DNA of 64,000 bases from a virus. The stretch's first letter is position 1. Each line of letters begins with the position of its first letter. Positions 803 to 31,825 of the stretch are shown here, in pieces. Location of the stretch: IMG/VR virus record IMGVR_UViG_3300042691_044733, positions 32,001 to 96,000 of that record, one strand, 5' to 3'. The notes under the pieces are model-generated. The model ran no database searches. It worked only from the letters and a program-made list of their open reading frames with translations, and was not told the origin of the DNA. Both the position numbers and the translations under genes were made by a program.

Positions 803-1573
803 ATGAAAGAAAATTTTAAAGAAGAAATAATGATAGCATTGACAAACTGCCCTGCTAATGAAGTATCACGTAAAGCATTTTTATGGGCAGCTTCTAATCT
901 TCCTGATGAAGGTGGAGTTGGTTCTTTCTCTACTGGATTTAAAGATATTGATCATGAAAAAGATTCTGTTGAAAAAGCTTTTGGTTTAAATGATAAAGTT
1001 TCAGAAGAATTAAATAATTCTTTCAATAAACTTTGTAAAGAACTTCAAAAAAAGGAAGAAAAATTAAAAACTTCTCAAGTAATTGAGAAATTTCTTAACA
1101 TTCACCCTTTTGCATATAAATTGTTTTTGGTTAGAGGTGCAATGGAAGTTCTTAGTGAACTAAAAGAAGATTCTCATAACAACGAATTAAATGAAATTGA
1201 AGACGGTATCAAAAAAGCTTTAGAACAAGCTGGTATTGATATTAGTAATGTCAAAATTGAAAGAAAAGTTATTGAAACAGATACTCAAGAAGAATATGAA
1301 CTCATAAAACAAATGCTTATTGAGAAAAATGAATTGAGTCAAATGAAGAAAAAAATGGAAGGTCTTCGTGATTCTATCGCAGATGGAAAAATTTCTCAAG
1401 AGAAAAAAGAATTTACAAGAAAAGAAGCAGGTTTAGTTGTAGAAAAGCTTGAAAAAATGCTAAGTATTGCAAAGAAATTAAATGCAAGAAAAACTCCAGG
1501 GTTTTCTGACAACGATATTACTAGAATGGAATCAGATTTAAAAATATTAAAACTTATTTACGAAAATTTATGA
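803..1573 (+). CDS. hypothetical protein, Glu/Lys-rich helical
   Basis: ORF 746..1573. The likely start is the ATG at 803, downstream of the terminator. ATGA overlap with the next gene. Confidence 0.7.
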   Translation: MKENFKEEIMIALTNCPANEVSRKAFLWAASNLPDEGGVGSFSTGFKDIDHEKDSVEKAFGLNDKVSEELNNSFNKLCKELQKKEEKLKTSQVIEKFLNIHPFAYKLFLVRGAMEVLSELKEDSHNNELNEIEDGIKKALEQAGIDISNVKIERKVIETDTQEEYELIKQMLIEKNELSQMKKKMEGLRDSIADGKISQEKKEFTRKEAGLVVEKLEKMLSIAKKLNARKTPGFSDNDITRMESDLKILKLIYENL

Positions 1574-2433
1574 TACTAAGTGATGATAAAAAGATAGATC
1601 TTGAATATATCAAATATCTTTACAATAATCCTGCTAACTGTGTTTCCAGCATGTTAATATTTGGTGAACCTGGAGCGGGTAAGACAAGTTTTGCTAAGTA
1701 CGTTGCTAAAGAATTAAACACTCATTTTATATTTGGTCCATGTTATGATGGTATGGGTGCAGATAAAATGGTTTATGACTGGGATTTGGGTACTTTAGCT
1801 GATGCTATGACAACTGAAGGTGTAAGTGGTAGAGAAGCATTAAAAGATGGTTATTTAATGCAGGCTTTGAAAAAATCAAATGAACAAAAAGTTTTACTTC
1901 TTATTGATGAGATTGATAAAGCAAAACCATCTGTTGATACTTTTTTGTTAAGCTATTTACAAGAATGTATGCTGAATGATCCTATAGCGGGGGTAATTCA
2001 TGGTAAAAAAGAGAATCTTTTTATTATTTTCACAAGTAACAAAAGAAGAGATCTTGAAGATGCTTTGGATAGAAGGTTTACTATGATCAGAGAATTTACT
2101 TTTCCTGAAAAGAATGAACTCATTCAACAAGTTAAAATGATGATTAATATTCCTTATAATGAAACTAAATTTCATTTTCTCATTGACCTCTTTTTGACTT
2201 ATAGAAGTTTAAAAGTAAATAAGAAACCATCTCAAAATCAGATTGCTGACCTTATACATGAATTGTATAATATTGGTAATTTGAGAATTGGAAGAATAAC
2301 TTCAAACAGAGCAAAATTCAGAGCATTACTTTGGAAATTATCCCAAGAAGAATCTGATCACAAAGTGTTTGTAGCTCACTGTAAAAAAATATATAAAGAC
2401 GTTTTTGAAAGCTACATTGGAAGTATGATTTAA
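1570..2433 (+). CDS. MoxR-like AAA+ ATPase (module 1)
   Basis: Walker A GEPGAGKT, Walker B LLLIDEIDK, sensor TSN, Arg finger ALDRR. Confidence 0.85.
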   Translation: MILSDDKKIDLEYIKYLYNNPANCVSSMLIFGEPGAGKTSFAKYVAKELNTHFIFGPCYDGMGADKMVYDWDLGTLADAMTTEGVSGREALKDGYLMQALKKSNEQKVLLLIDEIDKAKPSVDTFLLSYLQECMLNDPIAGVIHGKKENLFIIFTSNKRRDLEDALDRRFTMIREFTFPEKNELIQQVKMMINIPYNETKFHFLIDLFLTYRSLKVNKKPSQNQIADLIHELYNIGNLRIGRITSNRAKFRALLWKLSQEESDHKVFVAHCKKIYKDVFESYIGSMI

Positions 2434-2441
2434 AAAAATTT

Positions 2442-3329
2442 ATGATTCATTTTAGACAAGATAAGCTTTTTGAAGATTACTTCGAGAAAAATAAATTTAT
2501 AGAACATACATACAAAGATAAGAAATTAACAATAAGTAAAGAAAATATAAACTCTATACCAAAAGAGTTTGTACAAAGTTTAGCAACAAGATTGGCAAAA
2601 AGTAATAGTAGCAGTTCTAAAATGGTTCCAGGCAAAGGAAATGGGGATAAAAAACCTGTACAATTTGATATGGCCCCTGATGGAAAAGATAGTGAAATCG
2701 GCAAAAACAAAGGTGGTAAAGTTAAAAGAGCTGAAGATAAAGTTGATAACACAATAGATAAGAAAGAATTTGTTAAAAAACAGGTTTTAAGACTTTCTAC
2801 AACAACTCATCTTTTTGAAGATAAGCTGGATTATCCTAAAGTATTCAAAGCTTTATTAACTGAACCACATAATGCTCTAGACTACAGAAGAAAAACAGAA
2901 GAAGATATTATTCAGTCTATCTTTGTAATTGATCCTGCAATAGGATATAATAATAATGATAAAGGATTTCATAAAACATTAATAACTGTCTGTAAAGAAA
3001 TTAAAGGTGTTGATGTTTTGGAGTTAACTTCTTTAACTGATTATTCTAGCGGAGAGTATTACTTAAACAAATTAGATCAAATAATGAAAAAAAATAAAGG
3101 TAATATTTATGTTTTTTCACAAGGTTGTGGGGGAAGTCCTCCAGATGTGCCATTTGATCTTAAAAAAGTTATTGGGACAAGAAAATTAACATTTTGCACA
3201 TGTTTTAAACATGGTGAAACTTGTGGATGTGATATTATACCTTCCCACGAACGTTTGCAAAAAGTTAATAAAAGCATGAAAATTTATTATAGCATTGATA
3301 GTTATAATAAACTTTCTTTATTAGAGTAG
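2442..3329 (+). CDS. probable degenerate vWA-like partner of the MoxR AAA+, Cys-rich C-terminus
   Basis: Directly follows the AAA+ gene. Low-complexity linker, then LDYPKVFKAL, IFVIDPAIG and IYVFSQG at the expected vWA strand positions, then CTCFKHGETCGC. Confidence 0.45.
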   Translation: MIHFRQDKLFEDYFEKNKFIEHTYKDKKLTISKENINSIPKEFVQSLATRLAKSNSSSSKMVPGKGNGDKKPVQFDMAPDGKDSEIGKNKGGKVKRAEDKVDNTIDKKEFVKKQVLRLSTTTHLFEDKLDYPKVFKALLTEPHNALDYRRKTEEDIIQSIFVIDPAIGYNNNDKGFHKTLITVCKEIKGVDVLELTSLTDYSSGEYYLNKLDQIMKKNKGNIYVFSQGCGGSPPDVPFDLKKVIGTRKLTFCTCFKHGETCGCDIIPSHERLQKVNKSMKIYYSIDSYNKLSLLE

Positions 3330-3338
3330 AAAAAATGG

Positions 3339-3373
3339 TTTGGATCCTTTTTAAATCTAATTATTTAAATTCG
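3339..3373 (+). promoter_or_regulatory. possible Bacteroidota-type promoter upstream of the candidate ncRNA
   Basis: TTTG (3339-3342) and TAAATTCG (3366-3373), one mismatch to TAnnTTTG. The 23-nt spacing is slightly long. Confidence 0.35.
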
Positions 3374-3378
3374 TAAAT

Positions 3379-3897
3379 GCTTACCACGCGAGTTTAAACA
3401 AAACATACACTAAGTTTAAAGATCTGATAAAGTATTCAATGTACGTTTACTTCGGGTAAACCTCTGGCAGTTGATTTATTGGTGAAATAAATTGATTACT
3501 ATCTAAAATAAGTTTTTGATGTTGGAATATACTGATAGAACTTAGAGAGTTATGGAAGCAACAATAAGATTTTGGTTTTTTTAAAGTTATTTGTGAAAAT
3601 ACTTTGGAAGAATATTGAGGAATTGTTGAATAAGTGAATTATTTAGTAAGAGTGTGAAGAAATTCAATTTTGTTTTTACAAGGTGATGAAAAGTCTCTTT
3701 ACGGATATTAAATAAGGATTTAAAAGTGACTAAAAACTATGCTCTGAAATGGGTATAGAAGTGGCAAGATTGCACCACAAATTACCTTTTTCGTATTATA
3801 GAAAGGTAAGATCTTAGTAAAGGTCCAAACTTAAAAGTGATTAAAAAGTATTGTGAGGAGGAAGTTCAGAAATGAATATTTCTCCTCACATATTTTT
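3379..3897 (+). ncRNA. candidate large structured ncRNA (~520 nt, family unassigned)
   Basis: ORF-free gap with more than 10 nested helices found by hand, many G-U pairs, GAAA/GTGA/TTCG loops and a terminal hairpin with T-run. Confidence 0.7.
3852..3897 (+). terminator. terminal hairpin / intrinsic terminator
   Basis: TGTGAGGAG (3852-3860) pairs with CTCCTCACA (3882-3890), inner GTTCA-GAAA-TGAAT, followed by TATTTTT. Confidence 0.65.
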
Positions 3898-3913
3898 ATT
3901 TAAAAAATCAATT

Positions 3914-4060
3914 ATGTACCAAATTTGCGCATTAAAGGATGAAAAAATTTTATATGAGGGGGATGTTGATCAATGCTGGAAATTTGTACAAAGCAATAAA
4001 GATTTAAAATATTTTATTGTTAGAGAAGCTGCAATAAAAGAATCTAGAATTACAAGATGA
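3914..4060 (+). CDS. small hypothetical protein (48 aa)
   Basis: MYQICALKDEK... from the ATG at 3914 after an A-rich leader. The annotated 3872 start lies inside the hairpin. Confidence 0.45.
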   Translation: MYQICALKDEKILYEGDVDQCWKFVQSNKDLKYFIVREAAIKESRITR

Positions 4061-4964
4061 TATTGTCAACTTTAGTTTTATTTTTTTCTGTAGTTACAAT
4101 GGCAAATCCATTAACCCAATTGTTAAACGGTAGATAGTTTGGTGACAAATCACATAAACAACCTACACTATAACAGTTTATACTTTTACCTGTAATATCT
4201 TTGAGTTTGTAAGAAGACTCTCTATGAAAATGTCCACATAAAACACTATGTTTTGTTTTATTGTAAATATTTTTTGCGGGGTTATCTCCACCAGACCCAG
4301 GATATTCATGTCCATGTAAGATAATTAAATCTTCAATTTTTACAGGAGTATATTTATTAATCTTAATAATATTGAATTTTTCAAAATCTAAAAGATTTTC
4401 AATCTTTAGTACATCCAAATCTTCAAGTTCTTTAGCTTTAGATTGAATGTATTTTTCTAATCTTATTTCATGATTTCCAAGTTTGAAATAGATAGGAATA
4501 TTTGGAAATAACTTTCTAAGATCTTTGAAAAACTTCTTTGTAATCTGTACTTCAGTATTCAAAGAAGGTTTATTTTTTTCTTTTACATGTACACTTAACT
4601 GATAAAAATCAAGTACATCACCATTTAGTAGTATTGCTGTTACTTTCTCATCTATACACTTTTGTATTGCTTTAGATAAAGCTTTTTTATTGTGATATGG
4701 AAAATGAATATCATTTAATATTGCTAATTTTGCTGTTTTGATTTCATAAATGCTGTTATCTTCTTTTTTACCATCTGGGATTGATAAGATTTTCTTTTCC
4801 TTACCTGGTAAATTTAAAAAAGATCTCAAATAAGATCTTGCGTGTTCAGTTCCTGTAAAGGTTTTAGGATTTTCTAAAAATAGTTTTCTTGATAAAGAAG
4901 CTAAAGATTCATTTGGATCTGCTGTTTTTAGAAATTTTTCAACTACATTGTAATTTTTATTCAT
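4050..4964 (-). CDS. calcineurin-like metallophosphoesterase
   Basis: Motifs DIH, NGD, GNHE, HGH, GHFH. Confidence 0.85.
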   Translation of the reverse strand: MNKNYNVVEKFLKTADPNESLASLSRKLFLENPKTFTGTEHARSYLRSFLNLPGKEKKILSIPDGKKEDNSIYEIKTAKLAILNDIHFPYHNKKALSKAIQKCIDEKVTAILLNGDVLDFYQLSVHVKEKNKPSLNTEVQITKKFFKDLRKLFPNIPIYFKLGNHEIRLEKYIQSKAKELEDLDVLKIENLLDFEKFNIIKINKYTPVKIEDLIILHGHEYPGSGGDNPAKNIYNKTKHSVLCGHFHRESSYKLKDITGKSINCYSVGCLCDLSPNYLPFNNWVNGFAIVTTEKNKTKVDNIIL

Positions 4965-4981
4965 TTTTTAAAAAATGTTTC

Positions 4982-4999
4982 TATATTTGTACAAATATA
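4982..4999. promoter_or_regulatory. palindromic pair of TAnnTTTG promoter elements between divergent genes
   Basis: Perfect 18-bp palindrome TATATTTGTACAAATATA, which gives TATATTTG on each strand. Confidence 0.55.
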
Positions 5000-5009
5000 C
5001 AAAATTTTT

Positions 5010-5249
5010 ATGTTATACCAATTACCTACAGGAAAAGTTATAAATATTTCAATTGATGACTATTTAAAGCTTACTGAATTAGACATTCAACATCTTATTA
5101 GCATTGATGCAGGATTTTATTCAAATTCTCCTTTTTTAGGTTCATCACTTGATAATGATTTTGATGAAATTATTGAAGAAGACCCTGATTCAAATGAAGA
5201 CCTTGACTTAGACATTGATTACGAATTATTTAATCCTTATGACCCATGA
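5010..5249 (+). CDS. small protein with acidic C-terminus
   Basis: 79-aa ORF with Asp/Glu-rich tail. ATGA overlap with the next gene. Confidence 0.7.
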   Translation: MLYQLPTGKVINISIDDYLKLTELDIQHLISIDAGFYSNSPFLGSSLDNDFDEIIEEDPDSNEDLDLDIDYELFNPYDP

Positions 5250-5701
5250 AAACAGAACAAATCATTTATCAAGGAAATTTAAAAAACTATCAAATTTTTA
5301 AGAACACCAATCCAATAAGTTATGAAAAAGACATTTTCAACGAAAAACAAAATTTCTTTTATAAAAGAGCCTTGTATGGTTTAAAATCATATGCGCCTGA
5401 AGAATGGGAAAAGATTCCTGGTGTAAAGAAAAAAAGAATTATCAAAGTAAACAAACGTGCACAAGAGATTCTTAATATCTGGAAACAGGAATTAGTGAAT
5501 GAAAAATACAATTCTTTATTGAAATCTGTATTTTTCCATAGTAAATTAATTAATGATTTTATTTCAGAATTTGGAAAAGAAACAGATCCAGAGTATATTT
5601 GTACTGTAAGTTTCAAAGAACTTAATTTGACTAAAAAAGATATAGCTCAAAAATTAGTATCTGAGAAAGTATTACCAGTAAATTTTTTTGAATTAAAGTA
5701 G
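5246..5701 (+). CDS. hypothetical protein
   Basis: 151-aa ORF in a tightly packed operon. Confidence 0.7.
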   Translation: MKTEQIIYQGNLKNYQIFKNTNPISYEKDIFNEKQNFFYKRALYGLKSYAPEEWEKIPGVKKKRIIKVNKRAQEILNIWKQELVNEKYNSLLKSVFFHSKLINDFISEFGKETDPEYICTVSFKELNLTKKDIAQKLVSEKVLPVNFFELK

Positions 5702-5704
5702 AAT

Positions 5705-6028
5705 ATGGGACAGTTCCACAATCTTGATAATGAAGATGTTATCTTTGTTTATTTATCAAACGAAAGATTTCTTGAAGAGTATGAATTACTTTTTGAAGCA
5801 AAATCAGTTGATAAAATCTCTTCTGTGAATAATGATACAGTAATGTTTTCATCAATTACATTTTCAGATGAAGAGATAGAAGAAATAAAAAATAGAGATC
5901 ATTACAAGTATTGTATGTCTGTCAGAAATAAACTTGGTCCCATTGTTGAAATAATTAAAGAAACTCTTCCAGATATTTATGATAAAGTCTATAAAACAAT
6001 GACACAATCTAATGAAGACGTACTGTAA
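5705..6028 (+). CDS. hypothetical protein (acidic)
   Basis: 107-aa ORF in the operon. Confidence 0.65.
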   Translation: MGQFHNLDNEDVIFVYLSNERFLEEYELLFEAKSVDKISSVNNDTVMFSSITFSDEEIEEIKNRDHYKYCMSVRNKLGPIVEIIKETLPDIYDKVYKTMTQSNEDVL

Positions 6029-6368
6029 TTGCGGTTCTTCTAAAATTTGGAAAAATGTTGAAGGAAAAAAATACTGTAAAGTTTGTTGTTCTAAACTTGG
6101 ATTTTTCAAAAAGTTGAAAAAAGTTTCAAGTAAACAAAAAGAAATCAATAAAGAATACAGTGTTAATAGAAGGAACTTCTTAGAAGAGAATCCTTATTGT
6201 CAAGCTAAATTACCTGGTTGCACAATCTATGCAACAGATATTCATCACAAAGAAGGTAGGGGAAATAACACAAATGAAGTAAATACTTTTATGGGTTTAT
6301 GCAGAGCATGCCATGAGTATATTCATTCTAATCCTATTCAAGCAAGAGAATTAGGTTATTTAAAATAA
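6012..6368 (+). CDS. HNH endonuclease with N-terminal Cys cluster
   Basis: CQAKLPGC...DIHHKEGRG...LCRACHEYIH. N-terminal CNC...CKVCC. Confidence 0.8.
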   Translation: MKTYCNCGSSKIWKNVEGKKYCKVCCSKLGFFKKLKKVSSKQKEINKEYSVNRRNFLEENPYCQAKLPGCTIYATDIHHKEGRGNNTNEVNTFMGLCRACHEYIHSNPIQARELGYLK

Positions 6369-6369
6369 T

Positions 6370-7449
6370 ATGACAAAAGATGAAATACAGGATGAATGTT
6401 TAAAAACTCTTATTCCTCTAAAAAATGGTACTTCTGTATTAAGTGTTGGTGTTGGTAAAACTAGAATTGCTTTAAGGCACATTGATTATCTTTTTCAAAA
6501 AGGCTTGATAAAAACAGTTTTAGTTGTTATTCCAAAAATATCTACGATTAAAACCTGGAAAGATGAAATTGCTTTAACAAGTTTAAATCATTTAAATGAT
6601 ATTATTACTTACACTACATACAGAAGTTTAAACAAACAAAGTAAAGATTACTCTATTGTATATTTTGATGAAATTCATAATATTTTAAAAACTCACAATG
6701 TTTATCTAAAGGATTATCAAGGTTATGTATTTGGTTTAACTGGTACTTTACCAATTTACAAATCAAATATTAAACGAAAAATGATTGATTATTATGCTCC
6801 TGTTGTGTTTAAATGTACAATAAAAGAAGCTGTTGATAATAAAATCATTAATGATGTAGATATCATTATTCACTACATACCATTATCTGATAAAAAAGAT
6901 GTCAAAATAACTACTGCTAAATCAGAGTTTTTTGTTAGTGAATTGGATAATTACAATTATATCTGCAAACAGATAGAAAATAATCCAGAAAAAGAGTTCT
7001 TGAAAATTATGAGAACTAAAATTTTACAAGAGTATAAATCTAAAGTTGATTTTATCAAAAAATTAAAAACTGAGATAACTGAAAAGTGTTTAATTTTTGT
7101 TAATTCAAAAATTCAAGCACAAGAAGTTTGTTCTCATTCTTATTTTTCTGGAAATGAACTTAGTGATGAAAATTTACTTAAGTTTAAAAAAGGTATAATC
7201 AAACAAATGAGTTGTATTTTGCAACTCAGTGAAGGAATTAACATTCCTGATTTAAGATGTGGAATTATTTCACATTCTTTTGGAAATGAGTTCAAATTAA
7301 ACCAACGTATCGGTAGGTTGTGTAGACTTAATCCAGACCAACTCTCTACAGTTCATATATTATGCTATAAAGGCACTATTGATGAAACATGGGTTGAAGA
7401 ATCTTTAAAAGATTTAAATCACAAAAAAATTAAAAAATTTTATTACTAA
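6370..7449 (+). CDS. superfamily 2 (DExH) helicase
   Basis: GVGKT, DEIH, TGT, EGINIP, QRIGRLCR. Confidence 0.85.
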   Translation: MTKDEIQDECLKTLIPLKNGTSVLSVGVGKTRIALRHIDYLFQKGLIKTVLVVIPKISTIKTWKDEIALTSLNHLNDIITYTTYRSLNKQSKDYSIVYFDEIHNILKTHNVYLKDYQGYVFGLTGTLPIYKSNIKRKMIDYYAPVVFKCTIKEAVDNKIINDVDIIIHYIPLSDKKDVKITTAKSEFFVSELDNYNYICKQIENNPEKEFLKIMRTKILQEYKSKVDFIKKLKTEITEKCLIFVNSKIQAQEVCSHSYFSGNELSDENLLKFKKGIIKQMSCILQLSEGINIPDLRCGIISHSFGNEFKLNQRIGRLCRLNPDQLSTVHILCYKGTIDETWVEESLKDLNHKKIKKFYY

Positions 7450-19587: not shown

Positions 19588-20783
19588 TGAAAAGAGAAAT
19601 TTCCGCAATAACTAATTTAAATGATTTGACTAGTTTAGATACAGTAAATGTTTTTGAAACTTTGCAAATAAATAAAATTACAGGTGCTATACATAAAGAT
19701 ATTAAACAAATTTATAGGTTTGAAACAGGCACTTTATTAAGAAACTGTAATAGTTTAATTTCTGATAGGTCAAATTTATTATCTGATACTGAAATTGTTA
19801 GAGATAAAAAAGTATGTTTTTTAAAAGGTTGTGTTTTTCCAAGGTATAAGCTAGCTGATTTAAAACTCTCTCACAATCTTTCTGTTGTGAGAGATTCTGA
19901 TAAGGCAGATTTCTTATGTATTGATAATAAGTTTTTACTGGAAGATCATTTGTATGAATATATATCTTTAAAAGATTTTATTGATAATTTAAGACCTTAT
20001 AGTGTTACTTCATTTTCTAAAAAAGCAATAACTTGGAGAGACAATATTTCATCAGAATTGAATTTTTTAAAAACAGCAATTTATAATTTTTTAGAAAACA
20101 AAATTGATGTTAATATTTTTATAAAAGTTAATGAAGCAAGTAAATTCATTGATGATCTTTATCATGTATTATATATTACACACATTTTAGATAATAAAGT
20201 TTATCATTTAAATGCTGGTTTTAATAGACATTTTTATAGCTCTCAGTATATAAAAGGATTTGATAAAATAACATTTGACCAAATTAAAGATAAGTTTGAT
20301 AATAATAAATTGATTAATACAAATCTTTTTAATAGATTGACTTCTTCATCCTATATAACAGATGATGTTTACAAACAACTTGATCAAATGTTAAATAGTA
20401 GTGATAAAGATAATCATGAATTAGCAATTGTTTTGATTTCTAATTGTGATTATCAAAAAAGTGCTTTTTATTATGTACTTTTATGGAGAAAACACTATAA
20501 CAAAATGGCTAGAACAAAAGCTTTTAAATCTGTAGGAATGAAAACATTTTTACAGAATTTTCCAGAATCAATGAATAGGTTTATTTATGGTAATTTAACA
20601 TCTCATATAAAAGATATAATAAGTTATAAAACTCCAATTATTTTTAAAGAACACTTACCACTTTTAAAAAGCATACTTACTGATGAAATATTAGATTCTT
20701 TACGTCTTGATAAAAGTATAGTTTCTTTTGAAGGTTTGAAGTTTACAATAGATGTGCCATCTGAAACAGACATAATATCATAA
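19587..20783 (+). CDS. hypothetical protein, possible BRCT-like segment
   Basis: 398 aa, coupled to the AAA+ gene. KVCFLKGCVFPRYKL...VVRDSDKADFLCI. Confidence 0.55.
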   Translation: MKREISAITNLNDLTSLDTVNVFETLQINKITGAIHKDIKQIYRFETGTLLRNCNSLISDRSNLLSDTEIVRDKKVCFLKGCVFPRYKLADLKLSHNLSVVRDSDKADFLCIDNKFLLEDHLYEYISLKDFIDNLRPYSVTSFSKKAITWRDNISSELNFLKTAIYNFLENKIDVNIFIKVNEASKFIDDLYHVLYITHILDNKVYHLNAGFNRHFYSSQYIKGFDKITFDQIKDKFDNNKLINTNLFNRLTSSSYITDDVYKQLDQMLNSSDKDNHELAIVLISNCDYQKSAFYYVLLWRKHYNKMARTKAFKSVGMKTFLQNFPESMNRFIYGNLTSHIKDIISYKTPIIFKEHLPLLKSILTDEILDSLRLDKSIVSFEGLKFTIDVPSETDIIS

Positions 20784-20785
20784 AT

Positions 20786-21769
20786 ATGAATACTAAATTT
20801 TATTTTAGTTATTCTTCAATATCTAAACTTCTTTACAATCCGTGGGTATTTTATAACTATTACATTCTTAATAATAGGGATGATAAAGTTTCAAATGCCA
20901 CCACGGATGGTAAGTTGATTCACTGTTTATTACTTTCTGAAGAAGACTTTCATAATCAATTTGTAGTATCGCCAGATAAGATACCCTCTGGGCCTACAGC
21001 AGATTTGATTAAAACAATTTTTAAAGAAGTATCTTCTCAAGAAGATTATGATGATAGAAAAAAATTAGAAGATTACAAAGATTTGATACTAAGAGAATTA
21101 GTTACAATTAATTTACATCAAAAATTATTGACAGATGAACAAAGAGTTGATAAAATAATAACTGAAGACAACCAAAAATACTTTGAATTTTTAAAAGAAC
21201 AAAGCAAAAAAATACTGGTCCCTGTAGAAGTTTATAATAAGTGCTTTTATATCAAGAATTTACTAAGCAAACACGAAAAAGTTAAAAAATTATTAAATCT
21301 AGATAATAATCCTGATTTAATTACTTACAATGAGTTATCTTTGCGTGCTGATGACTCAGTAAATTTTGATAAGTCATATGGTATTCAAGGTATATTGGAT
21401 AATCTTACTATAGATAGAATTAATAAAGTAATAACTATTAATGATATAAAAACCACTAGTAAAACATTACAAGAGTTTCAAAGTTCAATTGATTACTATA
21501 AATATTGGTTACAAGCAAGTATTTATATAATGCTTGTTTCTTATAATAAAAAATTTTTTGGACTTGATGAACAAGATATATATAATTTAAAATTTAATTT
21601 TATCACTATTGATAAATATAATCAAATTTATTGTTTTCCTGTTTCAAATGAAACTTTAACTAGTTGGTTTTCAAATACTCAAAAAGTATTTGAAATTGTA
21701 GATTTTCATTATAATTTTAATAGATATGATTTACCTTATGAGTACGCTTTAGAAAAGGTAATATTATAA
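20786..21769 (+). CDS. PD-(D/E)xK exonuclease (RecE/Cas4-like superfamily)
   Basis: SYSSISKL, GKLIHCLL, NEL, QGILDNL, DIKTT, QASIY. Confidence 0.8.
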   Translation: MNTKFYFSYSSISKLLYNPWVFYNYYILNNRDDKVSNATTDGKLIHCLLLSEEDFHNQFVVSPDKIPSGPTADLIKTIFKEVSSQEDYDDRKKLEDYKDLILRELVTINLHQKLLTDEQRVDKIITEDNQKYFEFLKEQSKKILVPVEVYNKCFYIKNLLSKHEKVKKLLNLDNNPDLITYNELSLRADDSVNFDKSYGIQGILDNLTIDRINKVITINDIKTTSKTLQEFQSSIDYYKYWLQASIYIMLVSYNKKFFGLDEQDIYNLKFNFITIDKYNQIYCFPVSNETLTSWFSNTQKVFEIVDFHYNFNRYDLPYEYALEKVIL

Positions 21770-21779
21770 ATAAAACTAT

Positions 21780-22337
21780 ATGAAAGATGTGTATAAAGAC
21801 TATTTCCAGAAATCTAAAATATTTTTATTTCCTCAACTGGATTTAGGTAAAGGTTCTATAAAACCATTGAGTACTTATACAAGTATTCCTGAAGTTATTG
21901 CACCTGAAGATTATAAATTGTTATGTCTTTATCAACTAAGAACTGATAAAGAATTCTTAAAATTTGAAAAAACTAAATTGTTTAAACATCATAGATTTGA
22001 AAGTTTTAGAGAACTAGTATCTGGCGAAGGTTTATATATTTTTGATTTTCAGGATCAAAAGAAGAATTTTGATTACTTCTACGAAGGAAAATATTCTAAA
22101 CTTGATGATAATTTCAAACAAAATATCATAAACTATTATGTTAATAAATCTTCATTTAATCTAGTTGATAGTTACATTAATCCACATAACTATTATGAGA
22201 TTTACTCAAAATTATTATTGTGCCCAGTTAGTGTATTAAAAGAGACTGTAGAGCTATGTGATAAACCAGATTTAAAGAGAGAAGCTTTACAAACTGTTTT
22301 TAAAAAATTTGACTTAAAAAACAAAATAAATATATGA
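21780..22337 (+). CDS. hypothetical protein
   Basis: 185-aa ORF in the operon. Confidence 0.7.
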   Translation: MKDVYKDYFQKSKIFLFPQLDLGKGSIKPLSTYTSIPEVIAPEDYKLLCLYQLRTDKEFLKFEKTKLFKHHRFESFRELVSGEGLYIFDFQDQKKNFDYFYEGKYSKLDDNFKQNIINYYVNKSSFNLVDSYINPHNYYEIYSKLLLCPVSVLKETVELCDKPDLKREALQTVFKKFDLKNKINI

Positions 22338-22738
22338 CAAATTCAATGATGTATGTAACTACAACTTGGAATAAAAAACCAAGTTTTAGATTAATACCAA
22401 TTACAGATACTTGTCCTTACATTGAATGTATTTTTGATGCTGAGGCAAAAGTTTTGGTTGTAGTATCAAAACTAAAAAAAGACCAATTTCACATGATCCC
22501 AAAATTGGACGATAATGGAGATATTGTTCAGAGAAGAATAAAAACTTCTCCTGAAGATAATCCTTTCAAACAAGAAAGGAAGCTAATTGAAACTTATCAA
22601 GAATATTATATTATTGATAAAAGAGAAATTCTTGATTTCTTGGACATGGCTGTAGAGAATAAAAACAATGCTGGTTACAAACAAGTTGCCTCAATGTTTG
22701 AAGAACCTACTGCAAAACTGGAAATTGTAACTCCATAA
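22334..22738 (+). CDS. hypothetical protein
   Basis: 134-aa ORF directly upstream of the polymerase. Confidence 0.7.
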   Translation: MTNSMMYVTTTWNKKPSFRLIPITDTCPYIECIFDAEAKVLVVVSKLKKDQFHMIPKLDDNGDIVQRRIKTSPEDNPFKQERKLIETYQEYYIIDKREILDFLDMAVENKNNAGYKQVASMFEEPTAKLEIVTP

Positions 22739-22749
22739 TATTAACAAAA

Positions 22750-24750
22750 ATGAAAACTATTTATGTAATGGACTATGAAACAATGATTAATTTCTTTTGT
22801 GGGGTATTTGTAAATATCAAAACAAAAGAAAAAAAAGTATTTGTTGTTCATAGATCTAGAAATGATATTATTGAACTTTTAAAGTTTTTAAAAGAAAATA
22901 AAAAAAATAATGATTATCATGTTAGCATAAATGGTATGGCATTTGATGCTCAAATTACTGAGTTTTTGTTAAAGTTTGATGAAACAGCTTTTGAATCTGG
23001 TGATCCTGAAATGATTGCTAATGAATTATATGATTTTGCACAAAGTGTAATATCAGCAAAGAATAATGATGAATATTTACCATTTAAAACTTGGGAGTAC
23101 TCAATTAATCAAATAGACTTATTTCTTATGAGGCACTGGAACAACCCTGCTAAATCTTGCTCATTAAAATGGGCACAGTATAGTATGGATTGGTATAATA
23201 TTCAGGAAATGCCTTATAAGCATTATGAGTTTATTGTTGATGATTATAAAGTAAAAGAAATCGTTGATTACTGTATAAATGACTGTTTATCTACGTTAGA
23301 GGTATATAACTCTTCAAGAAAAGAATTAATACTTAGAAGAGATTTAAGTAATGAATACGGTAAAGATTTGTTAAGTGCTTCTGAACCTGGTATTAGTAAA
23401 GAAATATTCTTGTATTTCCTTAGTAAGAAAACAGGATTACCAGAAAAGCTGTTAAAAAAGTTAAGAACTTATAGAGATGAAATAGTTGTTAATGATATAT
23501 TACTTGATTTTATAGAATTTCAAACTCCAGAATTTAAAAAAATTCATGAGAAATTCAAAAAACTAGTAATAGATCCTTCAAAAACAAAAGGCAATTTTAA
23601 AGAAAGTCTAACTTTTAAGAACTGCGATATTGAATTTGCACAAGGTGGAATTCATGGAGCAAGAGCTGAAGGTGTTTATTCATCTACAGATGACATGGTT
23701 ATAGTTTCAAGTGACTTTGTTAGTTATTATCCGAGGTTAGTAATAACAAATAACTGGAGTCCAAAACACTTAGATCAAAGTATATTTTGTGAACAATACG
23801 AATGGTTCTTTAATGAAAGAATAAAAATTCCCAAATCAGATCCGCGTAATTATGTTTATAAAATTATTCTTAATAGTACGTTTGGTTTAAGTATGGATGA
23901 AAATAGTTTTTTGTATGATCCTTTATTAGGAATGAGAATAACTTTAAATGGTCAACTAGTTTTGGCAATGTTTTTTGAAAAAGTACTACTTGCTATAGAA
24001 GGATCTAAACCATTGATGATTAATACTGATGGTCTTGAAATATTAATTCCAAGAAATAAAGTAGATGAGTATTACAAAATGGCAAAAGAGTTTGAAGAAT
24101 TAACAAAAATGACTTTTGAACACGAGTTTTATGATAAACTTATACTTAGAGATGTAAATAATTACATAGGTATTTATAAAAAGAAAGAAGTAAATTCAGA
24201 AACTTATGCAAATAGTCTAACTGAAACTCCAGAGTTTGTTCATACACAAGAAGGTAATAAGTTTTTTATACAAAAAACAAAGTGTAAAGGGGCATTTGAA
24301 TTTAAAAACTTACCATTGCATAAAAATAAAAGCTTCTTAATTATAAGAAAAGCTATATATGATTACTTTGTAAAAGGTATTTCAGTAGAAACTACTATAA
24401 AATCAAGTAAAAACTTATTTGATTTTTGTGGAGGTGTTAAATCTAAAGGTGAATGGGAAGTTTATTCTAGGTGTATAAAAGGAATAAATGTAACAGAAAG
24501 ACCTTTGCAAAAAGTAACAAGATATTTTGTTACAAATAAATATGAAGCTAAATGTCATATTTATAGAAAAAATAGGATAGATGGTAGAGAAATCTACGTA
24601 ATATCAGATCCTTCAGTATCATTGAAAGAATTAAATGTTTATGATGAAACAGAAATAAACAATGTTAATTATCAATGGTATATTTCAAAATCAAAAGATG
24701 AGATAGAAAACATCTTAAAAATTAATATAAACCAATATAAATTATTTTAA
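22750..24750 (+). CDS. polB: family B DNA polymerase with 3'-5' exonuclease
   Basis: ExoI DYET, ExoII NGMAFD, ExoIII YCIND. Polymerase motifs DFVSYYP, KIILNSTFG, NTDG. Uninterrupted. Confidence 0.9.
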   Translation: MKTIYVMDYETMINFFCGVFVNIKTKEKKVFVVHRSRNDIIELLKFLKENKKNNDYHVSINGMAFDAQITEFLLKFDETAFESGDPEMIANELYDFAQSVISAKNNDEYLPFKTWEYSINQIDLFLMRHWNNPAKSCSLKWAQYSMDWYNIQEMPYKHYEFIVDDYKVKEIVDYCINDCLSTLEVYNSSRKELILRRDLSNEYGKDLLSASEPGISKEIFLYFLSKKTGLPEKLLKKLRTYRDEIVVNDILLDFIEFQTPEFKKIHEKFKKLVIDPSKTKGNFKESLTFKNCDIEFAQGGIHGARAEGVYSSTDDMVIVSSDFVSYYPRLVITNNWSPKHLDQSIFCEQYEWFFNERIKIPKSDPRNYVYKIILNSTFGLSMDENSFLYDPLLGMRITLNGQLVLAMFFEKVLLAIEGSKPLMINTDGLEILIPRNKVDEYYKMAKEFEELTKMTFEHEFYDKLILRDVNNYIGIYKKKEVNSETYANSLTETPEFVHTQEGNKFFIQKTKCKGAFEFKNLPLHKNKSFLIIRKAIYDYFVKGISVETTIKSSKNLFDFCGGVKSKGEWEVYSRCIKGINVTERPLQKVTRYFVTNKYEAKCHIYRKNRIDGREIYVISDPSVSLKELNVYDETEINNVNYQWYISKSKDEIENILKININQYKLF

Positions 24751-24751
24751 T

Positions 24752-25036
24752 ATGAAAATTACAAAAGGGATTCGTTTTGAAGAATCCACCCTTAATATTA
24801 TTAATGCAATTGCAGAGATTAAAAAAACAACTCCAAATAAATTTATTGAAGAGATTGTTGATGCTGTAGCAAACGGTTTTGCTAAAACTCAAGAGTATAA
24901 AACATATACTGAAACAAAAGAAAAACTTCAGGAAATGTTGAGTTCTAAAACAGAAACAGAACAATCTGAATCTACAAATGTATCAGTAGATACGGAAATG
25001 GTACATGATGCAATAGTAGGTGAAAAATCGTTTTAA
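24752..25036 (+). CDS. ribbon-helix-helix-like small DNA-binding protein
   Basis: ITKGIRFEESTLNIINAIAEIKKTTPNKFIEEIV beta-alpha-alpha pattern. Confidence 0.55.
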   Translation: MKITKGIRFEESTLNIINAIAEIKKTTPNKFIEEIVDAVANGFAKTQEYKTYTETKEKLQEMLSSKTETEQSESTNVSVDTEMVHDAIVGEKSF

Positions 25037-25038
25037 TC

Positions 25039-25419
25039 ATGACTAAACATCAGTTTGATTCGCTAATTGTAGACAGAAGATTAGAATTAATAAAAAAAAT
25101 TCTTAAGAGCAAAAATGCAGAGTATTCTTACTCTGCATCTGCTTTTGAAAATTTTGAAAAAGGAGTTGAATTAAGCATGCATGACAAAAAAGAAAAGTAT
25201 GCATGGGAACTTCTTGTTAAACATTTACAGTCTATAAAATCAATACTTGAAAATTTAAATGACAGAAAAAATCCTTCAAATGAACTTATTGAAGAAAAAT
25301 TTGGGGATGCCATCAATTATTTGATTTTATTAGAAGGAATGTTAAAAGAAAGAAACGGTTTTGAAAGTGCAATGCGCTTTGATTTAGTAAAAGAAATAAA
25401 AAATGAAAAAGCAGATTGA
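25039..25419 (+). CDS. all-alpha nucleotide-modification-associated (Nmad1/DUF1599-like) protein
   Basis: KNAEYS...FENFE...KHLQSI...EEKFGDAINYLILL. Confidence 0.55.
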   Translation: MTKHQFDSLIVDRRLELIKKILKSKNAEYSYSASAFENFEKGVELSMHDKKEKYAWELLVKHLQSIKSILENLNDRKNPSNELIEEKFGDAINYLILLEGMLKERNGFESAMRFDLVKEIKNEKAD

Positions 25420-25810
25420 TAAAGTAAAAGAATTTCATGAAGCATTTAATGTGGATAATTCAAAAACCATGACATTATTGCCTGTAGAGGACTATACACT
25501 AAGGTATAATCTTTTAAAAGAAGAGCTTGATGAGTATATGACAGCATGTCAAAACAATAATATTGTTGAAGTTGCTGATGCACTAGGAGATCAATTATAT
25601 ATCATAATAGGTACAATGCTCAGACATGGGCTTCAAGATAAAATGGAGGAAGTATTTGATGAAATTCACTCAAGTAACATGAGTAAATTAGATGCTTCTG
25701 GAAAACCTATTTTTAGAGAAGATGGTAAAATAATGAAAAGTTCGTTGTATTTTAGACCTCAAATATCTAAAATACTAGAAAATGGAAATAATATTGCTAA
25801 TTCTAATTAG
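25403..25810 (+). CDS. MazG-like NTP pyrophosphohydrolase
   Basis: VKEFHEAF, EELDEY, EVADALGDQLY, IHSSNMSK, REDGKIMK. Confidence 0.85.
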   Translation: MKKQIDKVKEFHEAFNVDNSKTMTLLPVEDYTLRYNLLKEELDEYMTACQNNNIVEVADALGDQLYIIIGTMLRHGLQDKMEEVFDEIHSSNMSKLDASGKPIFREDGKIMKSSLYFRPQISKILENGNNIANSN

Positions 25811-25876
25811 CTTTGAATTATCAAAACAGCTTGTTAGGTCTTTTAAAAAGAAGACTTAATGTGTTTATATGTGTAG

Positions 25877-25910
25877 TAAAAAGGGAGGTTAATTCCTCCC
25901 TTTTTATTTT
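25877..25910. terminator. bidirectional terminator at the convergence of the two arms
   Basis: TAAAAAGGGAGG/CCTCCCTTTTTA stem with loop TTAATT. T-runs on both strands. Confidence 0.8.
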
Positions 25911-26034
25911 ATCTACCTTGACCTTTGTATTTCTTAGTATAATATTTACTTTTTTTACTATTACTAGATTTCTTTTTAGTGTGAACTCCTGTTTTTCTTT
26001 TTGAAGGTTTTGGTGAAAAGTTGTTAGTTTTCAT
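25909..26034 (-). CDS. small highly basic protein (41 aa)
   Basis: Hand-translated MKTNNFSPKPSKRKTGVHTKKKSSNSKKSKYYTKKYKGQGR*. ATGA overlap with the upstream stop, ends at the terminator. Confidence 0.7.
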   Translation of the reverse strand: MKTNNFSPKPSKRKTGVHTKKKSSNSKKSKYYTKKYKGQGR

Positions 26035-31823: not shown

Positions 31824-31825
31824 AA

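Follow-up and report, generated by a model that had tools for sequence, protein, structure and literature searches.

A probable new family of large structured non-coding RNA encoded behind a MoxR AAA+/vWA-like gene pair in phage contigs

The locus analysed here lies in a 64,000-nt stretch of viral DNA (positions 32,001 to 96,000 of IMG/VR record IMGVR_UViG_3300042691_044733; hereafter the window), within a region of replication and early genes (helicase, primase, polymerase). It raises the question of whether a long gap between open reading frames (ORFs) holds a structured RNA and, if so, of what kind. Large structured RNAs of no known function are, to our knowledge, rare, and each new class of large RNA has brought unexpected biology: ROOL and GOLLD proved to form RNA cages, OLE a membrane ribonucleoprotein (RNP). 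We conclude, with a probability of about 0.8, that the + strand of the window at about 3350-3900 encodes a real, expressed and structured non-coding RNA of a new family, roughly 490-550 nt in length.

Coding potential, homologous copies and gene neighbourhood

A preliminary description of the window had singled out this gap as the largest free of ORFs and as richer in G than in C on the + strand. Both observations were borne out. At 542 nt, positions 3330-3871 are the longest stretch without ORFs of at least 50 aa (the second-longest internal gap measures 71 nt), and the gap contains 104 G and 57 C, compared with 9234 G and 9408 C in the window as a whole. All six frames of 3330-3913 are interrupted, each by at least two kinds of stop codon (TAA/TAG/TGA counts per frame: + strand, 6/2/6, 9/1/8 and 10/3/4; - strand, 8/3/2, 9/2/3 and 9/1/0), and reassignment of any one stop codon opens none of the six. 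Six-frame comparison of the window with its homologs found no peptide kept across lineages; such similarities as exist extend over just 12-33 aa, are scattered over both strands and several frames, and never include the window. A protein-coding gene was rejected on these two grounds, the alternative stop readings and the peptide comparison.

Five homologous copies are present in other phage contigs. L003 and L004 were recovered first, then L078 and L008, then L241, with nhmmer used to confirm candidates; the L008 contig stops 178 nt beyond the 3' core of the RNA. The six sequences amount to about four or five lineages, L003 and L004 being mutually close and likewise L078 and L241, and the covariation counts given below are therefore not independent events. 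Gene order is the same in all six loci: an AAA+ gene (a 287-aa ORF at the same position in each of the five homologs), a vWA-like protein of 266-295 aa, and then the RNA, which follows the last stop codon of the gene pair by about 40 nt. A UAAAUGC anchor lies 41-46 nt past that stop codon in 6/6 loci, and the genes downstream of the RNA vary from locus to locus. The RNA blocks are still alike at the blastn level, the neighbouring proteins being 29-42% identical; the RNA blocks have thus been conserved better than the coding DNA beside them. Among the best named relatives of the DNA polymerase is that of the crAss-like Cellulophaga phage phi14:2 (33.5% identity); the polymerase relatives suggest that the hosts may be Bacteroidota.

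The 3' strand of the best-conserved helix, written as a 20-nt degenerate pattern, matched four true copies and one chance sequence among the viral_contigs; its matches in the 37 genome_contigs stretches were chance matches alone. L005 was discarded as a chance pattern match in GC-rich coding sequence, L244 and L247 as coding (the L247 match is a helicase P-loop), and the remaining viral pattern loci for want of nhmmer confirmation. Searches of 50,697 phage records returned no homolog, either by blastn with the window and L003 RNAs or by tblastn with the vWA-like protein. The vWA-like protein alone or alignment A1 recovered no related locus from viral_contigs, and the phosphoesterase as query yielded a single unrelated relative there (L001, 30%).

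Table 1. Features of the RNA and its upstream genes, in window coordinates
Feature	Position	Strand	Remarks
MoxR-type AAA+ ATPase, 287 aa	1570-2433	+	Pfam AAA_5 E 3.3e-14, AAA E 3.4e-13
Cys-rich vWA-like protein, 295 aa	2442-3329	+	Structural match; stop codon ~40 nt before first helix of RNA
Spacer, vWA-like stop codon to rod	3330-3368	+	Length kept; two RNA-library contigs start at 3350
RNA-library contigs, by run	3350-3836; 3350-3823; 3255-3624 + 3607-3822; 3301-3858		0 differences each
Rod 5' strand (H1, H2, H2b, H2c, H3/4)	3369-3404	+	Best-conserved block, GUAAAUGCYUACYACGCRAG
First arm, 5' domain	3404-3554	+	Two outer stems, conserved junction, hairpin Hb, window-only hairpin
Conserved junction UAUUC..UGUACGUU	3433-3447	+	First arm
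Hairpin Hb	3445-3461	+	29/29 cells paired in 5 sequences; 3/6 columns changed on both sides
Conserved CCUCUGGC	3461-3468	+	First arm, directly after Hb
Second arm (domain 2 of preliminary description)	3559-3628	+	Stem 3559-65/3622-28 (H10), variable hairpin inside
(G)GUAAGA motif and hairpin PE (3650-3665)	3645-3665	+	Stacked against rod
Rod 3' strand	3667-3706	+	Conserved block AGGURWUGRAMRGUCUCUUUAC
3' domain	3716-3826	+	H7, H5, H6, conserved AUUGCAC, H8
Outer stem H7	3716-21/3821-26	+	3' domain
Inner stem H5	3729-33/3814-18	+	3' domain
Hairpin H6, loop UGAAAU	3737-58	+	3' domain
Conserved AUUGCAC	3769-3775	+	3' domain
Hairpin H8	3782-3809	+	3' domain
Intrinsic-terminator-like hairpin (3853-3889) and U-run	3853-3901	+	-25.1 kcal/mol

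Secondary structure and strand

The minimum free energy (MFE) of 3379-3897 on the + strand is -120.5 kcal/mol, compared with -97.5 +/- 5.5 in 100 dinucleotide shuffles (z -4.15; 0/100 as good); for the - strand, z is -1.53 and 8/100 shuffles are as good. For the homologs the z-scores are weak, and the + strand is not favoured in all of them (+/-, 40 shuffles each: L003, -1.5/-3.6; L004, -1.3/-2.9; L241, -2.4/-2.9; L078, -2.5/-0.5; L008, -1.8/-1.1). Since they separate no strand, they were left out of the argument on strand and structure.

The RNA folds into two domains, a 5' domain of about 340 nt closed by a long rod and a multi-branch 3' domain of about 110 nt. The rod is the best-conserved element and is absent from the helices first proposed. 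In an alignment anchored on invariant motifs, its two strands pair gap-free in all six sequences (153/174 cells canonical); sliding the partner by 1-3 positions lowers the canonical share to 39.7-44.8%. Double changes occur in 12 of its 29 columns; 0/1000 shuffles reached the observed percentage paired and 1/1000 the number of compensatory columns. Four of the six sequences form the same rod in their separate MFE folds. The rod takes up 3390-95, which had been assigned with 3827-32 to a helix closing the entire RNA. In the homologs the partners for that helix are weak and lie at non-equivalent places, and it was discarded; the single closing helix is replaced by the rod-closed 5' domain followed by the 3' domain. 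The RNA also begins earlier than the 3379 first given, with the rod from 3369 and two RNA contigs from 3350.

The 29-position rod that closes the 5' domain has conserved internal loops, and the multi-branch junction of the domain bears invariant single-stranded motifs. A GUAC palindrome in the junction is conserved and apparently unpaired, and invariant nucleotides as a whole concentrate in junctions and internal loops. In the first arm, hairpin Hb had been predicted from the window and is supported by the homologs. The stems 3404-07/3551-54 and 3410-17/3538-45 form in the constrained fold of the window and may correspond to a long arm that the homologs bear at this place. A further helix proposed there, 3433-40/3521-29, found no support: its UAUUC motif is conserved and its partner is not. 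UAUUC may make a contact with GAAUA. Three of the hairpins occur in the window alone: one of 12 bp at 3469-97, a long one at 3577-3611 and one at 3761-78. The previously described stem H10 is kept, pairing in the window, L003, L004, L078 and L241 with a change from A-U to U-A when aligned by hand. Hairpin PE is paired in 6/6 sequences, with exchanges among G-C, A-U and U-A.

Unguided alignment with MAFFT, followed by RNAalifold on five sequences, recovered H7, H5, H6 and H8. Across the 3' domain 84.9% of cells are paired, against 34.8-48.5% with slid partners (0/500 shuffles as high), and 13 of 34 pairs have changed on both sides. These four helices had been recognised in the window; H7, H5 and H8 stand as described, and H6 stands with a conserved UGAAAU loop in place of the GAAA tetraloop assigned to it. 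The terminator hairpin proposed downstream was likewise found, although a simple terminator scan missed it. All five complete copies end in such a hairpin and U-run on the + strand, and the hairpin sequences differ.

Covariation was assessed by counting canonical cells and double changes against slid partners and shuffles, in a structural alignment made by anchors and by hand. For nine helices taken together, two of which (PE and H5) were hand-aligned after inspection of the sequences, as were the extra tables for H10, H7 and H8, 270 of 295 cells are canonical, compared with about 40-48% with partners slid. Compensatory double changes are present in 27 of the 52 columns, and 0/1000 shuffles reach the observed values.

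The cells of these helices include 36 G.U and 7 A.C, and pairing therefore points to the + strand, on which 270 cells are canonical compared with 241 on the - strand. In this orientation the RNA reads in the same direction as its upstream genes. The strand bias also bears on whether the conserved element acts as DNA, for instance in packaging, as an origin of replication or as an array of protein-binding sites with conserved inverted repeats. Its position among replication and early genes, its AT-richness and its many inverted repeats might suggest so, as might three homologs in which, measured against shuffles, folding of the - strand is no worse than that of the + strand. We regard this as extremely improbable: tolerance of G.U with rare A.C fits an RNA made from one strand and not DNA cruciforms, pairs about 300 nt apart covary, the terminator lies on the + strand in 5/5 copies, and identical contigs occur in four RNA libraries.

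Transcription and known RNA families

Contigs from 4/4 metatranscriptome runs examined, which come from four studies and do not include the DNA runs or the small-share runs X13 and X14, cover 3255-3858 with 0 differences; they are assembled contigs, which carry no strand, true ends or level, and DNA can sit in RNA libraries. The X10 and X11 contigs begin at 3350 and two contigs end at 3822/3823, which hints weakly at ends in keeping with the structural core (3369-3826). Two others reach back into the upstream ORF, to 3255 and 3301. The four runs contained no contig from 1000-3254, and none from 3859-7000 besides two X9 pieces of 21 and 33 nt (4917-4937 and 6373-6405), each flanked by sequence not matching the window; such gaps in cover say nothing about expression of the neighbouring genes.

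The preliminary description had placed a promoter-like element in front of the RNA. No consensus promoter was located by scanning for sigma-70 sites (10, with 7.4 expected, none convincing) or for the Bacteroidota-type promoter pattern TTTG..TAnnTTTG (6, with 7.4 expected, none at the RNA), and the 10-mer at 3336-3345 is no repeated motif of clear meaning. Because contigs enter the ORF and no promoter was found, the RNA may be cut from an operon transcript. We infer that the + strand is transcribed and that the stable product runs from about 3350 to 3836.

Processing from an operon transcript brings in a reading of the element as a cis-acting 3' UTR of the AAA+/vWA operon, serving as a stabiliser, a barrier to processing or decay, or a regulator, with the stable fragment as a by-product. 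Such a UTR would account for an interval, from the stop codon at 3329 to the RNA, that shows neither a terminator nor a promoter that could be recognised, for the spacing of ~40 nt to that stop codon fixed in six loci, and for the two contigs that cross from the ORF into the RNA (3255-3624 and 3301-3858). It is nevertheless unlikely, as ~500 nt with at least 12 helices and invariant junction motifs far exceed the needs of known 3' stabilisers, the RNA blocks outlast the neighbouring coding DNA in conservation, and two contigs start at 3350, past the ORF.

Comparison with Rfam 15 at gathering score found no family in the 64-kb window and, in the five homolog loci, nothing besides tRNAs elsewhere in those loci. 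Permissive scans (E up to 10) of window positions 3250-4000 and L241:150-800 returned unrelated chance-level matches alone, and these differ between the two sequences. The ROOL and GOLLD models gave no match at gathering in the window or the five homolog loci and were unlisted even in the permissive scans. For the RNA, Rfam and ARAGORN gave no match to OLE, RNase P, group I/II introns, tmRNA, tRNA, 6S or Y RNA, in agreement with the earlier failure to recognise a tRNA, tmRNA, RNase P or intron core in the window. The sole intron-type match, to a fragment of a plastid group II D1 model, lies at 3307-3350, upstream of the structured core, and reaches 19.6 bits (E 8) where gathering requires 52.5. 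The RNA had been taken for either a divergent ROOL/GOLLD member or a new class; the evidence supports the second alternative.

A catalytic RNA, such as a processing ribozyme for the unusual tRNA genes of the phage, might be expected to gather its invariant nucleotides in junctions and internal loops as seen here, and the short motifs CGGUAAGAG and GGAAAGUC resemble conserved stretches of RNase P. Those motifs occur in the order opposite to RNase P and in another pairing context, no flanking split gene suggests an intron, and even with E values up to 10 admitted no RNase P, intron or ribozyme model scored above chance in either the window or L241. Membership in RNase P was rejected on motif order and on the model searches, and a catalytic role in general is very doubtful.

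The literature searched contains no description of the RNA. One survey of IMG/VR lists candidate structured RNAs of phages that are 29-151 nt long (PMC10690425), and a sub-motif of the present RNA could be among them. Taken together, the RNA has the features by which large structured ('ornate') non-coding RNAs are described, namely non-coding character, compensatory helices and conserved unpaired nucleotides. Putative freshwater relatives of crAss-type phages carry a non-coding RNA that current annotation and Rfam have missed, and its size puts it within reach of in vitro transcription and cryo-EM.

Candidate protein partners and comparison with known systems

The first upstream gene encodes an AAA+ ATPase of MoxR/dynein-related type (Pfam AAA_5, 53.5 bits vs a cut-off of 22). 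Its neighbour belongs to no Pfam or PHROG family. In an AF2 model of that protein (pLDDT 73), residues 155-295 best match vWA domains (Z 8.5, rmsd 3.3, 129 aligned), and vWA chains lead the structural matches, with Z from 8.5 to 7.0 over some 130 residues at rmsd 3.0-3.6, all in the common Z range. The matches include Ro60/Rsr (2nvo_A, Z 7.8; phage phiLo Ro60 9l5y_B, Z 7.6) and the NorD vWA of NorQ-NorD (Z 7.6, residues 103-295). A Foldseek search of the PDB with the model gave weak hits and no clear match, and the ESM Atlas offered no usable match. The N-terminal 159 residues modelled alone reach pLDDT 59 and pTM 0.28, too low for a structural search. A disordered basic Lys/Gly-rich linker is conserved, with pLDDT <50 at residues 57-98, as are QGCGG and CGC motifs. 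The MIDAS signature DxSxS is absent after strand 159-163 from the eight aligned proteins (A4), which have D-x-x-x-G/S-Y-N/H, with no serine at either of the two positions. A collection of 5.8 billion proteins contains four clusters of this protein in all, its own included.

We tentatively propose, at odds short of even, that the RNA and the AAA+/vWA pair encoded next to it assemble into an RNP. The RNA would be a stable trans-acting scaffold; the MIDAS-less vWA-like protein, with its Lys/Gly-rich linker, might bind the conserved loops of the rod, and the AAA+ ATPase might load or remodel the particle, in parallel with OLE RNA or Y RNA and the proteins encoded beside them. The proposal is based on the constant position and distance of the RNA relative to the gene pair across six loci, on the match of the neighbour's predicted vWA fold to RNA-binding Ro60/Rsr and on its conserved disordered basic linker. 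Against it, the adjacency may be gene order inherited among related phages, and the vWA match is a moderate one (Z 8.5, in the common range).

Alternatively, the RNA could be an RNA-only ornate assembly like ROOL and GOLLD, perhaps oligomeric, that acts on macromolecules of the host or phage independently of the AAA+/vWA genes. Its length, its numerous helices and the invariant nucleotides of its junctions would suit this, as would its being phage-encoded and present in RNA libraries. ROOL and GOLLD are likewise described as phage or prophage RNAs, abundant, often near tRNA islands and without known protein partners (PMC12286853). The nearest ARAGORN tRNA lies ~4.6 kb upstream of the RNA in the window (G000) and ~2.8 kb upstream in L003 and L004, with none called in the L078, L241 or L008 loci, and the conserved unpaired GUAC palindrome could mediate RNA-RNA contacts. 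An RNA-only assembly of this kind seems rather unlikely: the ROOL and GOLLD models show no similarity, and the fixed neighbour is a gene pair, not a tRNA island. More broadly, the RNA may perhaps be the nucleic-acid subunit of an unseen phage RNP machine, in which a MoxR-type AAA+ and a MIDAS-less Cys-rich vWA protein would assemble on or remodel a ~500-nt two-domain RNA, or else a third self-assembling phage RNA class unrelated to ROOL and GOLLD; we would sooner bet against this pair of possibilities than on it.

The upstream genes resemble RavA-ViaA, NorQ-NorD and the jumbo-phage MoxR/vWA pairs in joining an AAA_5 gene to a vWA-like fold, and differ in that the vWA of the window lacks the DxSxS metal site and has QGCGG and CGC motifs. 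Phage MoxR-vWA pairs have been proposed as virion-assembly chaperones with no RNA involved (PMC7824862), which counts against the RNP, and the literature searched describes no RNA partner for such pairs. In the present loci the RNA is accompanied by two proteins of this family as candidate partners, and the RNP, if real, would be the first link of MoxR/vWA chaperones to RNA.

Like ROOL and GOLLD, the RNA of the window is phage-encoded, several hundred nt long and built of many covarying helices, with tRNA genes within a few kb in G000, L003 and L004. GOLLD has two separable domains (PMC12286853), and the window RNA is two-domain too. It differs from ROOL and GOLLD in secondary structure and in having the MoxR AAA+/vWA pair, not a tRNA island, as its constant neighbour, and it is so far known from six metagenomic contigs.

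OLE is another large RNA with highly conserved nucleotides. The genes of its partners OapA/B/C, which are unrelated to AAA+/vWA, adjoin the OLE RNA gene. OLE is described as ornate, about 600 nt long and working as an RNP (PMC9723947); unlike the window RNA it is bacterial (extremophilic Gram-positives), and the two share no sequence or model similarity.

In the Ro60/Y RNA system a vWA-domain protein is paired with a structured non-coding RNA, as the vWA-like protein is by adjacency here. The Y RNA gene lies beside the Ro60/Rsr protein gene. Y RNAs are much shorter than the window RNA and have a tRNA-like part, of which ARAGORN and Rfam find none here. Ro60 is also encoded by phages (PMC12135203); the vWA-like protein of the window is half its size and has no sign of the TROVE ring, and, unlike in Ro60/Y RNA, an AAA+ ATPase belongs to the unit.

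An ORF-free gap and its homologs

The window covers bases 32001-96000 of a virus record of 126,979 bp. At a 50-aa ORF threshold its longest stretch without an ORF is 542 nt, the largest gap as the preliminary description had it; the next internal gap measures 71 nt. Flanking the gap are a 295-aa ORF (2442-3329, +), whose stop codon marks one side, and the next plausible gene, beginning at ATG 3914 (+). No frame is opened between 3330 and 3913 by reassignment of a single stop codon, because stops of at least two kinds occur in each of the six frames. The region is single-copy in the genome, and the excess of G over C remarked on earlier for its + strand holds (G 104, C 57; G and C are about equal over the whole window). 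Folding of 3379-3897, the interval initially proposed, gave a + strand energy of -120.5 kcal/mol, where shuffled controls averaged -97.5 ± 5.5 (z -4.15), bearing out the folding described for it; on the - strand z was -1.53. A 62-aa ORF at 3872-4060, whose start falls inside a terminator loop, is a candidate only; its in-frame ATG at 3914 yields a 48-aa candidate ORF with no family match.

DNA and protein searches across 50,697 GenBank phage records returned no homolog, and the 295-aa upstream protein had just three other 90% clusters among 5.8 billion proteins. Aligning the four proteins led to two metagenome contigs, L003 and L004; in both, ~600 nt directly 3' of the homologous gene are free of ORFs, and this gap aligns with that of the window. 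Three further contigs were recovered with degenerate patterns from conserved blocks and screened by nhmmer profiles: L078 (E 4e-27, then 2e-123 with a rebuilt profile), L241 (E 5e-76) and L008 (E 3e-68; copy truncated by the contig end). The remaining pattern matches, in coding DNA, were rejected as chance, and screening one genome of every prokaryotic species yielded chance matches only. Named phages are only distant kin of the window phage, whose DNA polymerase shares 31-34% identity with its counterparts in Nitrincola phage 1M3-16 and Cellulophaga phage phi14:2.

All six loci share one order, a 287-aa AAA+ gene, a gene for a 266-295-aa protein and then the candidate RNA, with 41-46 nt from stop codon to first conserved RNA block. 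Genes 3' of the RNA vary (in the window, the 48-aa ORF and a phosphoesterase encoded on the opposite strand; in L003, a weak ParB-like ORF). In L004, ARAGORN called a tRNA with anticodon TTA, which would pair with UAA stop codons, ~2.8 kb before the RNA (2676-2749), and an irregular tRNA in the matching place of L003 (2938-3010); both are also tRNAs by Rfam, and a stop codon may be reassigned in these relatives. A 113-nt Rfam tRNA match (36.7 bits) at L004:7392-7504, 1.2 kb downstream of the RNA and with no ARAGORN call, may mark a tRNA gene that is interrupted or unusual in some other way. Upstream of the window, positions 20000-33000 of the virus record carry three ARAGORN tRNA genes (Arg-CCT, Gln-TTG and Arg-TCT), the nearest ~4.6 kb before the RNA.

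Architecture and covariation

Conservation is highest in a 5' block, GUAAAUGCYUACYACGCRAG, and in AGGURWUGRAMRGUCUCUUUAC ~300 nt downstream. Their pairing was first suggested by RNAalifold on three sequences, and the resulting long-range rod was recovered when the window, L078, L241 and L008 were each folded on their own (MFE). In a gap-free alignment of all six sequences anchored at two invariant motifs, 29 rod positions were paired in every sequence and 153 of 174 cells were canonical; sliding the 3' partner by 1-3 positions left 39.7-44.8% paired. Both sides had changed in 12 of the 29 columns (at the third pair of rod helix H2, U-A in the window and L078, C-G in the other four), and among 1000 column shuffles none reached the observed percent paired and one the compensatory-column count. 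Counted over nine helices (the rod and four others), 270 of 295 cells were canonical and 27 of 52 columns compensatory, matched by 0 of 1000 shuffles, the six sequences representing about four or five lineages in a partly hand-made alignment.

For the 3' domain, unguided MAFFT and RNAalifold on five sequences recovered the outer stem, inner stem, UGAAAU hairpin and last hairpin, with 84.9% of cells paired vs 34.8-48.5% when slid, and with both sides changed in 13 of 34 pairs (0/500 shuffles as high). Three more stems keep their pairing in hand-aligned tables.

Coordinates of RNA features and RNA-library contigs in the window
Feature	Position	Strand	Remark
5' domain	3369-3706	+	closed by rod
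Hairpin	3445-61	+	helix beyond rod
Hairpin	3650-65	+	helix beyond rod; 3' of conserved GGUAAGA
3' domain	3716-3826	+	
3' domain stem	3729-33/3814-18	+	helix beyond rod
UGAAAU-loop hairpin	3737-58	+	helix beyond rod
Terminator-like hairpin (U-run follows)	3853-3889	+	separated from 3' domain by linker
Contig, one run	3350-3836		
Contig, one run	3350-3823		
Contigs, one run	3255-3624 and 3607-3822		
Contig, one run	3301-3858		

Most local elements drawn by hand in the preliminary description hold up, three of its hairpins being specific to the window. Its whole-RNA closing helix (3390-95/3827-32) is not supported because bases 3390-95 belong to the rod, and 3433-40/3521-29 lacks a conserved counterpart in the homologs. 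The terminator it proposed stood: all five complete homologs end in a hairpin and U-run, with unrelated stem sequences.

The multi-branch junction of the 5' domain carries the invariant unpaired motifs UAUUC..UGUACGUU, CCUCUGGC and GGUAAGA, and the rod internal loops are conserved, including a purine-purine step next to an invariant C-G; a ribozyme is nevertheless a very improbable reading of this architecture. The junction UAUUC (window 3433-3437) is complementary to a 3'-domain GAAUA in L003, L004 and L078 and to GGAUA in L241, both placed 5' of a conserved UUGCAC; L008 has neither UAUUC nor the 3'-domain motif, and the window is missing the 3'-domain copy, with a local GGAAUA at 3524-3529 instead. 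An inter-domain tertiary pairing may be read from these sequences; five bases in an AU-rich RNA could also be complementary by chance. Both rod strands of L078, L241 and L008 carry GAGGUAU (window blocks 3385-3395 and 3679-3690), and this heptamer is therefore a direct repeat, not a complement; its copies flank the purine-purine loop beside the invariant C-G pair, an arrangement that does not match a simple kink-turn.

Strand and transcript

G.U accounts for 36 of the 295 cells and A.C for only 7, and canonical cells fell from 270 on the + strand to 241 when the same pairs were read on the opposite strand. Terminators and upstream genes share the + orientation. Folding z-scores of the homologs were modest and did not separate the strands, the - strand being as good or better in L003, L004 and L241. 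Parts of 2800-4300 were held by 14 public runs, six of them metatranscriptomes; in all four whose contigs were placed on 1000-7000, contigs covered the RNA with 0 differences. Beside these counts and contigs, a DNA-level element is scarcely probable, and we infer a stable + strand RNA of about 490-550 nt.

The left end is at 3350 in two contigs from separate studies, and the right end at 3822/3823 in two, near the boundaries of the structural core (3369-3826). Because the contigs are assembled, these ends are only a weak hint of the RNA ends; the contigs carry neither strand nor level. Since two contigs enter the ORF upstream, the RNA may be processed from an operon transcript; a cis-acting 3' UTR, with which such contigs and the fixed spacing would also sit, is improbable. 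No promoter was identified at the RNA, where a promoter-like element had been described. A near-perfect palindrome, TACAAGGCTTGTA, lies between stop codon and RNA at L078:839-851 (-) and in the matching place of L241 and L008, the window having GGATCC there; the palindrome might serve as a promoter element or as a site for protein binding.

Known families and the neighbouring gene pair

Rfam 15 at gathering thresholds gave 0 matches in the whole window, and at threshold in the homolog loci only tRNAs, located away from the RNA. A permissive scan of 3250-4000 gave twelve matches, all far below thresholds (best E 0.23), with ROOL, GOLLD, OLE, RNase P, tmRNA and 6S absent among them; weak matches in L241 fell in other families. 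No tRNA or tmRNA was called within the window. No description of this RNA was found in the literature searched; the short structured phage RNAs compiled in one catalogue reach only 151 nt (PMC10690425). The element is conserved, non-coding and structured, shows RNA-type covariation, is present in RNA libraries and belongs to no described family, as expected under one of the two readings first proposed, a large structured RNA of a new class.

The first upstream gene encodes an AAA_5 (MoxR/dynein-type) ATPase; the second has no family in Pfam or PHROG. Residues 155-295 of the second protein's AlphaFold model (pLDDT 73, pTM 0.57) match vWA domains (best Z 8.5), other matches being Ro/Rsr (Z 7.8), phage Ro60 (Z 7.6) and NorD vWA (Z 7.6); Foldseek was unclear, and the N-terminal part alone folded too poorly for structural search. 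The protein lacks the DxSxS metal site and has invariant QGCGG, CGC and N-terminal HFRQ motifs, and its residues 57-98 form a disordered linker rich in Lys and Gly. These traits suggest that it is a variant of the vWA proteins that partner MoxR ATPases, one that binds a metal cluster or nucleic acid.

Conserved internal loops of this kind are often protein-bound. The RNA would form an RNP together with the AAA+ and vWA-like proteins encoded next to it (probability roughly 0.35), a reading suggested by the fixed adjacency and spacing, the conserved rod loops, the basic linker and precedents elsewhere. Phage MoxR-vWA pairs have been proposed, with no role for RNA, as assembly chaperones (PMC7824862). 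An RNA-only ornate assembly like ROOL or GOLLD is only slightly less probable than the RNP. The RNA resembles the large ornate phage RNAs in kind, is by model tests a member of none, and has a constant neighbour unlike theirs. For the RNP with the gene pair, the precedents are Ro60, a vWA-containing protein that works with Y RNA, and OLE RNA with its neighbours.
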